DNA of 64,000 nt, from assembly GCF_057098645.1 (NCBI RefSeq), contig NZ_CM169472.1; one strand, given 5' to 3'. The translations under genes and the position numbers were made by a program. Of this stretch, positions 831 through 47,844 are shown one piece after another. Below the pieces are notes generated by a model that worked only from the letters and a program-made list of their open reading frames with translations, searched no databases and had not been told where the DNA came from. Numbering within the stretch: the stretch's first letter is position 1; the number at the start of each line of letters is the position of its first letter.

Positions 831-1144
831 TCACACCATATCCAGCGCAGTTTTTCCTTTTGGTGCCGGATACGCTTTGTCCAGCATGGCTAATTCCGCT
901 GACGAAAGTTCGACCTCAAGCACAGCCGCATTCTGTTGGACATGGGCAATCGTGGCCGCTTTTGGAATCGCCATCACACCCTGATGGCTGATTACCCACG
1001 CCAACAATACTTGTGCCGCGCTGATATTGTGAGCATGTGCAATTTCGTTGACTACCGCGTTTTTTAACAGTCCATTGCGCAACCGCCCGGCCTGGGCTAA
1101 CGGACTGTAAGCCATCACCGGCATCTGCTGTTGCTGGCACCAGG
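831..1144 (-). pseudogene. yeaE: yeaE 3' fragment (aldo-keto reductase), separated from its 5' part by the IS insertion
   Basis: ORF 831..1217 matches the YeaE C-terminus from WCQQQQMPVMAYS onward; the upstream part of that ORF reads into IS sequence. Confidence 0.85.
1138..1144. repeat. Target-site duplication CACCAGG, left copy
   Basis: The same 7-mer flanks both IS ends (1138..1144 and 3785..3791); the reconstructed yeaE reading frame needs only one copy. Confidence 0.75.
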
Positions 1145-1346
1145 TGCAAAATGGCATCTGAATCGATCGCAGTTTGGCATTCGAATCGATCATGATTTGG
1201 CATCCATCTCCGATCACAGTTTGGCATCACAATCGATCACGATTTGGCATGCTTCCGATCATTGATTGGCATCCTGCCAGTCACTCCGGGAATTAACTCT
1301 TTTCACCACAGTCTCCATTGCCGTGTTTAAACCAGTGGAGACGTCA

Positions 1347-2912
1347 ATGTCCAGAAAGAGAAAATCCAGGAGCACTATGGAAACCTGTTTTAAGATCCTT
1401 CAGCTCAAGTTCGACAAGAAGCTGACTAACCGTTGTATCGGACTGACGTTACACATCAGCGCCTCAACCGTTTTTGAGGTTCTTGCCCGCTTCAAAGCCT
1501 CTTCTCTGTCATGGCCATTACCTGCTGATATATCCCATGACACGCTGGAGAAACTCATTTTTCCGCCCAAAGACACCTTTGCATCAGAGCTTGTAATGCC
1601 TGACATGTTGTACTTCGATACGGAAATGAGAAAACCAGGTGTGACGCGGCAACTGTTGTGGATGGAATACAAGGCACAGGCGGGTAACAAAGCGATGGGA
1701 TACTCGCACTTCTGCCGTTGCTACCGGGAGTGGAAAAAAACGCGACGTCTCTCCATGCGCCAGGAGCATCGTGCCGGCGAAAAGCTTTTTATCGACTTCT
1801 GTGGTCCTACGGTTCCTGTTATTAATCCGGACACCGGTGAGATACGCCGCGTGGCAATCTTCGTGGCCGTAATGGGGGCGTCCAACTATACCTACGTTGA
1901 AGCGTGCGAAGGTCAGGACATGATGTCATGGTTAAATGCCCACAGCCGTTGCCTGACCTTCCTGGGCGGCGTACCGAAGCTGCTCATCCCCGATAACCTC
2001 AGAAGCGCAGTGAAAAAGGCCGATCGATATGAGCCTGTCATCAACGACAGTTATCAGGCACTGGCTGAGCACTATGGCACGGTTATCATCCCGGCCCGAC
2101 CACGCAAACCTAAAGATAAACCAAAAGCAGAAAACGGCGTCCTCATCGTTGAACGATGGCTTCTTGCCCGCATCCGTAATGAAACCTTCCACACGCTCAG
2201 GGCGCTGAATGCGCGCCTTAGGGAGTTACTGACAGACATGAATAACCGGCCAATGAAGGGGTACGGCAATCAAACCCGTGCAGAACGCTTCCGCATACTG
2301 GATGCGCCAGCACTCTCTCCGCTGCCTCTGGCACCTTATGAATACACGGAATACAAAGCTGTGAAGGTTGGCCCTGACTACCACGTTGAATATGCCCGTC
2401 ACTGGTACTCCGTTCCACACGAACTGGTCGGTCAGCGTCTGTCACTGAAGGCGGGGCAGTCGGTGGTACAGCTCTGGCACAAGGGGCAGTGTGTGGCGCA
2501 ACATCCGCGCAGCACACATGAATATAAACACACAACCAATCCGCTTCACATGCCAGAGCGCCACCGGCAGCACGGGACATGGACACCGGAACGCCTGATC
2601 GAGCAGGGAAAACGTACGGGCCCGTCCACAGGCCGGGTGGTTGAATCCATGCTGAAGGCAAAACCCCATCCGGAACTGGCTTATCGTGCAGTTCTGGGGC
2701 TGCTGGCACTTCAGAAAAAATACGGCCCGGAACGGCTGGAAAAGGCCTGTTACGTTGCCCTGCACTATAACGCCCCTGACAGACGCTTTATCGACAATCT
2801 GCTGCGTCACCATCGGGAGAACCTGGAGCTTCCATTATCCCGCCAGGGCGAACAACATCCGGCATATGCTTCAGAGCATGAAAACCTGCGTGGTCCGGGC
2901 TACTACCACTGA
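1347..2912 (+). CDS. istA: IS21-family transposase IstA (521 aa)
   Basis: ORF 1266..2912; preferred start ATG 1347 (MSRKRKS) preceded by GGAG; the longer ORF-track start lies inside the terminal repeats; family assignment rests on the two-gene layout and repeat architecture. Confidence 0.8.
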   Translation: MSRKRKSRSTMETCFKILQLKFDKKLTNRCIGLTLHISASTVFEVLARFKASSLSWPLPADISHDTLEKLIFPPKDTFASELVMPDMLYFDTEMRKPGVTRQLLWMEYKAQAGNKAMGYSHFCRCYREWKKTRRLSMRQEHRAGEKLFIDFCGPTVPVINPDTGEIRRVAIFVAVMGASNYTYVEACEGQDMMSWLNAHSRCLTFLGGVPKLLIPDNLRSAVKKADRYEPVINDSYQALAEHYGTVIIPARPRKPKDKPKAENGVLIVERWLLARIRNETFHTLRALNARLRELLTDMNNRPMKGYGNQTRAERFRILDAPALSPLPLAPYEYTEYKAVKVGPDYHVEYARHWYSVPHELVGQRLSLKAGQSVVQLWHKGQCVAQHPRSTHEYKHTTNPLHMPERHRQHGTWTPERLIEQGKRTGPSTGRVVESMLKAKPHPELAYRAVLGLLALQKKYGPERLEKACYVALHYNAPDRRFIDNLLRHHRENLELPLSRQGEQHPAYASEHENLRGPGYYH

Positions 2913-2928
2913 CAGAAGGAACAACAGT

Positions 2929-3684
2929 ATGAGTGATAACCTGTTAAACAAACTGACCCAACTGAAACTCCCGGCGATGGCCGGGAGCCTGATACGGCAG
3001 CGGGAAACGCCTCAGACCTACGACGAACTGTCGTTCGAGGAAAGGCTGACGCTGCTGGTTGATGACGAGCTTCTGAGCAGGGAAAACAGCCGTGTGGCAC
3101 GGTTGAGAAAAAATGCCGGCCTGAAATACCAGGCAACACCGGAAGGGCTGCGCTATCCGGCCTCAAGAGGTCTGCGGGCTGAACAGATGAGAGAACTGCT
3201 GAACGGCCACTACATAACCCACAGGAAAAACCTGCTGATAACCGGTCCGACAGGATGTGGCAAGAGCTGGATAGCCAATGCGCTGGGCGAACAGGCATGT
3301 CGACAGAAACACAGCGTCCGGTACTGTAGAACCGGGCGATTACTGGAACAACTGGCTCAGGGACGTGTTGATGGCAGCTGGCTGAAATATCTGAAACAGT
3401 TGCAAAAAATACAGGTTCTAATCCTGGACGATCTGGGGCTGGAACAGTTAAGTAACGCCCAGTGTAATGACCTTCTGGAGCTCATAGAGGATCGTTACGG
3501 ACAAAGCAGCACGATAGTGGTAAGCCAGTTCCCGGTAGATAAATGGCATGGTCTGATGGAGAACCCAACAACAGCAGATGCCATCCTGGACAGACTGGTA
3601 CATAACTCACACCGAGTGGTCCTTCAGGGAGAGTCACTGAGGAAAAATCCCCCGGTAGTGGAAAGCAGCGAAAAAACGCGTTAA
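2929..3684 (+). CDS. istB: IS21-family helper ATPase IstB (251 aa)
   Basis: Walker A GPTGCGKSW and DExx-like LILDDLG motifs; ATG 2929 preceded by AAGGA, 16 nt after the istA stop; ORF-track upstream extension overlaps istA and is not used. Confidence 0.85.
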   Translation: MSDNLLNKLTQLKLPAMAGSLIRQRETPQTYDELSFEERLTLLVDDELLSRENSRVARLRKNAGLKYQATPEGLRYPASRGLRAEQMRELLNGHYITHRKNLLITGPTGCGKSWIANALGEQACRQKHSVRYCRTGRLLEQLAQGRVDGSWLKYLKQLQKIQVLILDDLGLEQLSNAQCNDLLELIEDRYGQSSTIVVSQFPVDKWHGLMENPTTADAILDRLVHNSHRVVLQGESLRKNPPVVESSEKTR

Positions 3685-3784
3685 AAAGCGGTAGAAAAAG
3701 TTAAGTTCCCGGTTGATCGAATGGATGCGAATCGCTGATCGGACTTCGATGCCAATCCGTGATCGAATAGAGCGGAATACGCAC

Positions 3785-3791
3785 ACCAGGG
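3785..3791. repeat. Target-site duplication CACCAGG, right copy
   Basis: Identical to 1138..1144. Confidence 0.75.
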
Positions 3792-5167: not shown

Positions 5168-5483
5168 AATTAATCATTCCTTAAACAAATGTTTAGCGGG
5201 CGACAAAGTTTACCCGTCAATACATCGAAACCCAACCTTTTTACGTTTTCATTTTTTAAAGTAACTGTTTAATTTTCCTGACGCGGATGACACCGCGCTT
5301 ACAGCCAAATGAATTTAGCGTTACTGGCGAGCCTGGTCTTTACATTAATTATGCAAAATTTATGGATGAGTTGTTGATATGCCATTGAAATTAAGAAAGC
5401 CGTGTAGGCAAGTTTTCCATTTGCCATCTACGCTTAATTTTGAAGGTGTATCACCGGGCACGTTGTTCTCATCGTCGATAAAA

Positions 5484-20504: not shown

Positions 20505-20609
20505 GATTCGTGTTTTATGTTTCACCAGTTACGGGGATTAATTCCTTTTCAGTCAATTATAGGATGGTGATGTTGTCAATTTTGATGGTCAGGAAGTGAG
20601 AACCCAATA

Positions 20610-44195: not shown

Positions 44196-44236
44196 AAGCT
44201 ATGTTTAGTGTATTTTTAATAATCAGACATAGCTTA
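44196..44236 (+). promoter_or_regulatory. Inverted repeat AGCTATGT...ACATAGCT upstream of mntP, candidate MntR operator
   Basis: Half-sites resemble the MntR box (AAACATAGC/GCTATGTTT) as recalled; spacing is wider than canonical. Confidence 0.35.
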
Positions 44237-44374: not shown

Positions 44375-44500
44375 TTGCGCCCTCATTTGGGGAGTAGCCG
44401 ATTTCCAGATTCCGGAAATGTACGTGTCAACATACTCGTTGCAAAACGTGGCACGTACGGACTGAAGACTTTCAGTCAGGCGAGACCATATGCACATCAA
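44375..44500 (+). ncRNA. yybP-ykoY family Mn2+ riboswitch in the mntP leader
   Basis: Signature TTGGGGAGTAG at 44388..44398 and a downstream GAGAC..CATA element, about 220 nt upstream of the mntP ATG; boundaries approximate. Confidence 0.6.
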
Positions 44501-45981: not shown

Positions 45982-46075
45982 GACAACTCCGGCAGGATAC
46001 TAAAGGCCGCAAGTGTAACGCGAATCACGCGGCGGGCAAATATCCGAACGCCAGGAGCGAAGATAAAGCATAGTA

Positions 46076-46102
46076 AAAAGCCTCGCATTCGACGAGGCTT
46101 TA
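46076..46102 (-). terminator. Rho-independent terminator after cspC
   Basis: AAAGCCTCG...CGAGGCTTT with a T-run on the minus strand. Confidence 0.65.
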
Positions 46103-46146
46103 TAGCGAGATTGAAGCGTATTCACACTTCAGATCAGTGGATTCGA

Positions 46147-46356
46147 TCAGATAGCTGTTACGTTAACAGCTGCCGGACCTTTCTGGCCGTCCTGAATTTC
46201 GAACTCAACGTTCTGACCTTCAGCCAGAGTTTTGAAGCCATTACCCTGGATAGCGGAGAAGTGTACGAACACGTCTTTGCTGCCATCAGCAGGAGTAATG
46301 AAGCCAAAACCTTTAGACTCGTTGAACCACTTAACCTGACCTTTAATCTTTGCCAT
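46147..46356 (-). CDS. cspC: Cold-shock-domain protein CspC
   Basis: 69-aa ORF with [15 protein letters not shown] motif. Confidence 0.95.
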
Positions 46357-46368
46357 TTGAAAAATTCC

Positions 46369-46512
46369 TTAGATTGTTTTCTTCGCCCGCAGGCATAACA
46401 TAGATAAAACTGACACATTACTGCATGAGGCACCAATATAAGGCTCGGCAGAGAAGCGGTATTCAACGTCAACGTGTTTACTCAGGACTTCTTTACTGAA
46501 AATGCCACACAT
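46369..46512 (-). CDS. yobF: Small protein YobF (47 aa), upstream of cspC
   Basis: Hand translation gives [47 protein letters not shown]; the ORF track shows only a longer overlapping frame. Confidence 0.7.
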
Positions 46513-47180
46513 AAACAGAACTGTACCTCGTTTAACCCGAAATCTGTTATCACATACAACGTTAATTATGGCAAGCCATTTTTAAACATGTCTCGATCAG
46601 ACGCACAAATCTCGATACGTCTTCCACTTTTTTTGCACACTTATGCAACGGAATACGCGCCGATATATCATTGTGCTTAACCTTGCCAGTTCAGGCAGAT
46701 ACTTAAACTGGCGTAGTTTCTAACATAGTTCAATAAGTTCAGTTGTTCCAGGCCAGTGGGAGAAGTTATTACATAGTGCGTGCAATATCACATTTTCTGC
46801 TATGCAATGAATAAAAAGTTATATCACTTTTTCTCATAAAACAGGCAGTTAACGGCTATCAATCACCCCAAAGAGAAGTCAATCCCAAAGGTATTGGAAA
46901 TTTAAAATAAGAAAAAATGATGAATAAGCAAAAAAATCAAGAGAGAAACGTTTCGCTAATAAATAATACCACGCTTAATCACAAATCCGATGTAAACATC
47001 CTAATAAATTAATGAGGAAAATATCTTTTTCTGATATCCCGTTACGCAAATAAATAATATGATAATTATTTGAAGTCAGACCAGAGTTTTAATTTGAAGC
47101 AGTTGCACCATGACAGTGCGTATAATCAGGATGAATTGAGTAACCCTTCAACGACGGGGTTACTCAAGATTGAGGAAGGA

Positions 47181-47468: not shown

Positions 47469-47542
47469 TTCACCACCTCTGAGTAGAGGCGCTATTCTAC
47501 CACTGCTGGAGAGGAAGAAAATCTAGTGCTGAAAAAATGATA

Positions 47543-47686
47543 TCACCACGGGATAAACTGGTTAATGGCACAAATTCCGCTGAAAAATTGCACATCCTGA
47601 TCGCACATCATGTTGAATACCTGCGCCCAAAGCAGCAAGCAAGCCAACACCACGACAACCAGAACGACCCATCGAAACTTTTTCAC
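47543..47686 (-). CDS. mgrB: PhoQ-inhibiting small membrane protein MgrB (47 aa)
   Basis: Hand translation from a GTG start gives [47 protein letters not shown]; absent from ORF track. Confidence 0.8.
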
Positions 47687-47844
47687 TCCAATCTCCGTTT
47701 CACCTACCTTATGTCATTAAACTAGCATGCGTTAGTTAAACAGCGCCTAACTATGTCGATATTCGTGCTTTTTCGGAATGAGTCGCTTGCTTCAGCGCAT
47801 ATTGCCGCTACGATTAAGCGAACATAAAAAGAGAAGAGGTTGTA

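Follow-up and report, generated by a model that had tools for sequence, protein, structure and literature searches.

MgrB is a PhoP-induced inner-membrane peptide of 47 amino acids (aa) that interacts with PhoQ and acts as its feedback inhibitor, and deletion of mgrB strongly increases PhoP-regulated transcription (PMC2789325). In Klebsiella, chromosomal colistin resistance arises mainly by disruption of mgrB by insertion sequences (IS) (PMC8829026). A stretch of 64,000 nucleotides (nt) of Escherichia coli DNA (NCBI RefSeq assembly GCF_057098645.1, contig NZ_CM169472.1), which we call the window, carries both mgrB and an IS element, and we asked if the gene, its promoter and the feedback loop they serve are in their wild-type state.

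Reading frame and protein of mgrB

The coding region and the only base by which it differs from its closest references are located as follows.

47543..47686, minus strand: mgrB coding sequence, 47 codons, GTG start at 47686..47684, TGA stop at 47545..47543
47591, minus strand: Val32 GTA>GTG, synonymous; the one base of the 376-bp locus that differs from K-12 and O145 (alignment column 254)

The open reading frame (ORF) at 47543..47686 contains neither a frameshift nor a premature stop, and in the ORF list its GTG is the first ATG, GTG or TTG past the upstream in-frame stop, so that no longer form exists. The product scores 66.3 bits against the Pfam family MgrB (PF13998, cut-off 27) and 89.9 bits against the NCBIfam equivalog NF007635 (cut-off 40), the latter match covering residues 1-47 of 47. 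Short ORFs are common by chance, 44 of at least 20 aa overlapping the 2.3 kb around mgrB, and a Pfam search with the ORFs that overlap the gene itself (62 aa and 36 aa on the plus strand, 36 aa on the minus strand) gave no family match. As PF13998 and NF007635 are matched far above their cut-offs and the overlapping frames belong to no Pfam family, mgrB is not a chance ORF. Rfam has no family within or adjoining mgrB, and the PDB holds no relative of MgrB by sequence. The protein has a basic N-terminus (MKKFR), one hydrophobic, presumably transmembrane stretch (W6-F24) and a tail ending in W, the boundaries of the transmembrane region and of the periplasmic tail being taken from PMC8404706.

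We aligned the gene with its references, as had been proposed in a preliminary description of the DNA. At the protein level MgrB is 100% identical to b1826 of E. coli K-12 and to MgrB of the O145 strain RM9872. In K-12 MG1655 the RefSeq annotation places b1826 ('PhoQ kinase inhibitor') as a 144-nt coding sequence at 1908623..1908766, and the alignment shows that it likewise starts with GTG, as does a published mgrB cloning primer, GTGAAAAAGTTTCGATGGGT (PMC10746255). The 376 bp from the start codon of yebO to that of yobH align with K-12 without a gap and differ only at 47591. The preliminary description, which had proposed an intact 47-aa mgrB with a GTG start, is thus borne out by the ORF list, the family matches and the K-12 alignment, and the role as PhoQ feedback inhibitor that it gave to the product agrees with published work (PMC2789325) and with the identity to the K-12 protein. 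Its remark that the gene is easy to miss no longer holds, as all E. coli records among the matches listed carry mgrB in their RefSeq annotation.

For a comparison across species we searched one genome of each species with a degenerate DNA pattern encoding CDQDVQFF; the mgrB loci obtained (L003-L122) gave 110 distinct full-length genes, 104 of them in register and six encoding 48-aa forms. Alanine scanning has identified K2, K3, W20, F24, C28, D31, F34, G37, C39 and W47 as important for PhoQ inhibition and, depending on the assay, also Q22 (PMC8404706); all 11 residues are present here. W20, Q22, C28, D31, F34, G37, C39 and W47 are invariant in the 110 sequences, although positions 28-35, and with them C28, D31 and F34, are constrained by the search pattern and count less. 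The degenerate codons among them vary synonymously (Trp has a single codon), and invariant residues with synonymously varying codons show selection on the mgrB frame.

These data also bear on the question if the real product is read from another frame, such as the 62-aa plus-strand ORF at 47537..47725, or is a shorter form starting at Met26 or Met27. Mechanically defined ORFs do overlap mgrB on both strands, and its own frame holds in-frame ATG codons at positions 26 and 27. The substitution pattern over the 110 species, however, with invariant residues and variable third positions, fits the mgrB frame, no overlapping ORF matches a Pfam family, K2 and K3 at the N-terminus and W20 in the transmembrane stretch are conserved and needed for function (PMC8404706), and an almost invariant GGAG stands 6 nt before the GTG. 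We regard a different or shorter product as scarcely credible and treat the 47-codon frame as the gene.

Genomic setting and the IS21-family element

The gene order yobF-yebO-mgrB-yobH-kdgR is shared with K-12 and O145, and the neighbours of mgrB are confirmed by profile (Pfam YebO for yebO, Pfam YobH for yobH). The whole window aligns colinearly with K-12 1863955..1925081 (identity about 98.8-99%), and over the 20 kb surrounding mgrB the identity to E. coli O145:H28 genomes is about 100%. The DNA therefore comes from an E. coli of that lineage, and a Shigella origin, which the name ISSso4 of the IS element might suggest, was rejected. Of the 65 K-12 genes mapped on the window two are damaged, yeaE by the IS element that splits it and yeaV by a nonsense codon; mgrB is intact. 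This is the norm in E. coli: at least 80% of the 144-nt gene is found in one piece in 5,422 of 5,426 complete genomes, and the 1.1-kb mgrB locus is in one piece in 5,408. What the window holds here is a textbook gene in wild-type form, one that is annotated universally.

The IS element lies close to the start of the window.

1145..3783, plus strand: IS21-family element, ISSso4-like, with istA and istB; complete; splits yeaE

Its proteins contain the Pfam domains rve and Mu-transpos_C_2 (IstA) and IstB_IS21 (IstB), and over 1140..3784 there is 100% identity with a copy, named as ISSso4 family, whose istA and istB are intact in the RefSeq annotation. The ends are of the TG...CA type (TGCAAAA...ACGCA), a 20-nt repeat occurs five times at the left end and has inverted counterparts at the right end, and a 7-bp target duplication, CACCAGG, flanks the element at 1138..1144 and 3784..3790. 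The interrupted gene, yeaE, encodes methylglyoxal reductase. The element occurs at this yeaE site in no complete E. coli genome of our collection; in strain CDF6 a copy sits between yeaE and mipA instead. An apparently intact IS21-family element had been described 46 kb from mgrB; the element is indeed complete and its distance is 43.8 kb. It poses no particular risk to mgrB, which it does not touch.

Several further features of the window were observed alongside. In yeaV, a putative transporter gene in the K-12 annotation, the nonsense codon arises from TAC>TAA relative to K-12 at 23215..23217, and its 5' end includes 224 bp (21847..22070) that are absent from K-12, with an upstream ATG at 21943; the K-12 gene may therefore be 5'-deleted and the copy in the window 3'-truncated. 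At the dmlA start (20607..20612) the first of two tandem ATGs is mutated (ATGATG>ATAATG), which is probably harmless as the second remains. A Mn2+ (yybP-ykoY) riboswitch upstream of mntP (44381..44477, plus strand) scores 42 bits against an Rfam gathering score of 45, so that a default Rfam scan misses it. The Rfam cspA thermoregulator model matches 46072..46532 on the minus strand with 136.9 bits, spanning cspC and yobF and reaching just upstream of the latter, and the gap between yobF and yebO consists of about 670 bp of AT-rich, apparently non-coding DNA. Known small RNAs are located at 62020..62164 (the overlapping antisense pair SraC/RyeA and SdsR/RyeB) and at 26937..27022 (sroD).

PhoP boxes and promoter elements

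The preliminary description had found no canonical PhoP box in 47700..47750 and had proposed a motif scan of the DNA upstream of mgrB. Scanning with the consensus KGTTTA-N5-KGTTTA yielded TAGTTAGGCGCTGTTTA at 47737..47753 on the minus strand, with two mismatches. Thus the canonical form is indeed absent, but a box exists; it had been missed because its distal repeat is non-canonical and because it runs 3 nt beyond the inspected interval. In the 64-kb window the same scan gives 34 sites with up to two mismatches and 211 with up to three, and as 34 sites match equally well or better the consensus match is weak evidence when taken alone. The best matches, with one mismatch each, are TGTTTAAGGAATGATTA at 5171..5187 (minus strand), directly upstream of the mipA start codon, and TGTTTAGTGTATTTTTA at 44202..44218 (plus strand), between yobD and the mntP leader, both of them candidate PhoP boxes by consensus only.

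Since the strict scan does not discriminate, we used a phylogenetic footprint, for which 111 distinct 140-nt regions upstream of mgrB from Enterobacteriaceae were aligned. The elements are listed below from distal to proximal, with the number of sequences, out of 111, that carry the respective base.

47769..47785, plus strand: probable second PhoP box, TTTTTC-GGAAT-GAGTCG, reverse orientation, degenerate in E. coli
47737..47753, minus strand: main PhoP box in direct orientation, TAGTTA-GGCGC-TGTTTA, separated by 12 nt from the -10 hexamer downstream
47752..47748, minus strand: distal half-site core AGTTA (A 90, G 111, T 108, T 94, A 111)
47747..47743, minus strand: spacer between the half-sites, 5 nt, variable
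47741..47737, minus strand: proximal half-site core GTTTA (111 for each base; the preceding base is G in 80 and T in 25)
47736..47725, minus strand: gap between PhoP box and -10 hexamer, exactly 12 nt, one helical turn
47727..47726, minus strand: TG of the extended -10 (T 108, G 109), followed by C
47724..47719, minus strand: -10 hexamer TAnnnT, here TAGTTT (T 102, A 111, final T 111)
47712, minus strand: predicted transcription start, A (95), 7 nt past the -10 hexamer, giving a 26-nt leader
47696..47693, minus strand: Shine-Dalgarno sequence GGAG (111, 108, 107, 111), 6 nt before the GTG

Zwir et al. 2012 (PMC3335776) analysed the promoter of yobG (mgrB) in Salmonella enterica with DNase footprints and by S1 mapping. 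Its main box, ACAGTTACTCCTGGTTTAA, homologous to the box at 47737..47753, is in direct orientation, belongs to submotif S2 and lies 12 nt from a TAATTT -10; what is termed 'architecture II' also includes a reverse-oriented second box, GTTTTTAGGAATGATTCAC (PMC3335776). The yobG row of Table 1 in that study ends with 12/31/26 (PMC3335776), the last number of which we read as an S1-mapped leader of 26 nt. The predicted start at 47712 in the window, a likely one, would give a leader of this length.

The counterpart of the second Salmonella box in the window is CTTTTTCGGAATGAGTCGC at 47768..47786 (plus strand). Its ATTCC and AAA portions are conserved in about 90% or more of the 111 sequences, and the TTTTT.GGAAT part is retained family-wide whereas the other half is degenerate in E. 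coli. The site at 47769..47785 is probably a second PhoP box; the conserved block could instead, or in addition, be part of a divergent yobH promoter.

A generic sigma-70 scan detected no promoter for mgrB, which is the outcome to expect when a promoter depends on an activator and lacks a -35 element. Its sole match, at 47565..47537, was rejected as mgrB promoter because it lies inside the 3' end of the gene and would serve yebO, if anything. This sequence on the minus strand, TTAACC-17-TATCAT with an upstream TG in the last mgrB codons, is located about 70 nt before yebO and may be the promoter of that gene, and a hairpin, CCTCT-ACTC-AGAGG, is found directly upstream of the yebO ribosome-binding site.

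That the locus depends on PhoP, and that its product has the known membrane topology and inhibits PhoQ, we infer from publications on K-12, whose protein and promoter are identical and for which inhibition of the PhoQ kinase through binding and induction by low Mg2+ via PhoP are established (PMC2789325, PMC8404706). On this view the locus would operate as follows. PhoQ, sensing low Mg2+ or cationic peptides, would phosphorylate PhoP, and phospho-PhoP would bind to 47737..47753 in place of a -35 element, recruiting RNA polymerase to the TG-extended -10 at 47719..47727. The resulting short transcript with its leader of about 26 nt would be translated from the GGAG/GTG initiation site into a 47-residue inner-membrane peptide, its N-terminus inside and its C-terminus in the periplasm, and this peptide would bind to PhoQ and suppress its kinase activity, closing the negative feedback loop.

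An intact ORF might still belong to a silent or non-functional gene, either through a private substitution or through a defect elsewhere, for instance in phoPQ, which would leave the loop open. The two genes of phoPQ are outside the window, and the exact 144-nt allele is rare, with two records at 100% identity among the matches listed (5,423 records matched). The private substitution, however, is the synonymous change in Val32, GTG is natural at this codon in 14 of the 110 sequences from other species, and promoter, Shine-Dalgarno sequence and leader are identical to those of K-12. We hold a silent or non-functional gene to be very improbable and conclude, with a probability of roughly 97%, that this is a wild-type mgrB locus with working PhoQ/PhoP feedback in an E. 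coli close to the O145:H28 lineage. The sequence itself offers nothing that contradicts this reading.

Start codon, resistance context and known systems

GTG is the start codon throughout the 110 distinct full-length genes for MgrB from Enterobacteriaceae. As columns +1 to +6 of the promoter alignment are an appended GTGAAA anchor, this count was taken from the extracted genes instead. At synonymous A/G sites in the same genes 30-43% of the sequences are polymorphic, as given by codon.

K3: AAA 66, AAG 38
Q22: CAG 76, CAA 34
Q33: CAG 63, CAA 47
K43: AAA 67, AAG 28

In clinical Klebsiella a change of the initial mgrB codon from GTG to GTA has been associated with a loss of MgrB function (PMC9334626), and the start of Klebsiella mgrB has been noted as GTG (PMC6101004). 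These reports document the GTG for K. pneumoniae itself; together with the GTG of the sampled genes, which come from other Klebsiella species and Raoultella among others, they rule out an ATG start for Klebsiella mgrB. The invariance suggests selection for GTG over ATG, with counts that ignore shared ancestry. Tentatively, and with slightly less than even odds in our estimation, the GTG may be under purifying selection because this sub-optimal codon and the invariant GGAG set the rate of MgrB translation and thereby the gain of the PhoQ/PhoP loop; if so, an ATG variant of mgrB would over-damp PhoQ/PhoP signalling.

It had also been stated that mgrB disruption causes colistin resistance in related Enterobacteriaceae. 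This applies to Klebsiella (PMC8829026). In E. coli itself, what has been documented on loss of mgrB is mainly tolerance to trimethoprim (PMC8355897, PMC8483737), and for colistin resistance in E. coli only two MgrB missense changes have been reported, their effect being unproven (PMC8829026). In laboratory-evolved E. coli silencing IS insertions fall between the PhoP box and the mgrB start codon (PMC8483737, PMC10746255); the corresponding segment of the window, 47687..47736, is uninterrupted. As the strain keeps normal negative feedback of PhoQ/PhoP, no mgrB-based derepression is expected, neither of PhoP-dependent lipid A modification nor of folA-linked trimethoprim tolerance. The importance of the finding is small beyond correct annotation; its by-products are exact coordinates for the promoter elements and a family footprint that explains why a strict PhoP consensus scan misses the box.

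Compared with K-12 MgrB (YobG, b1826; NP_416340.1) the locus has the same 47-aa protein, GTG start and neighbours, and the 159-bp promoter and intergenic region as well as the downstream spacer agree base for base; it differs in one synonymous base, Val32 GTA>GTG at 47591. With mgrB of Klebsiella pneumoniae it shares family, length of 47 aa, GTG start and feedback role, whereas in Klebsiella inactivation by IS elements or point mutations is common and gives colistin resistance (PMC8829026). The resemblance to Salmonella yobG extends to the promoter: in each the first repeat of the direct box is non-canonical (xAGTTA) and the second canonical, a weak TAnnnT -10 follows at 12 nt, the leader has 26 nt, as read from the table for Salmonella and as predicted here, and a second box, a probable one in the window, lies in reverse orientation about 30 nt further upstream. 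They differ in the -10, TAATTT in Salmonella and TAGTTT here, in the spacers, and in the second box, TTTTTA-GGAAT-GATTCA in Salmonella as compared to TTTTTC-GGAAT-GAGTCG in the putative E. coli box. Judged by its sequence elements, the layout of the mgrB promoter in the window matches the footprinted 'architecture II' of Salmonella.
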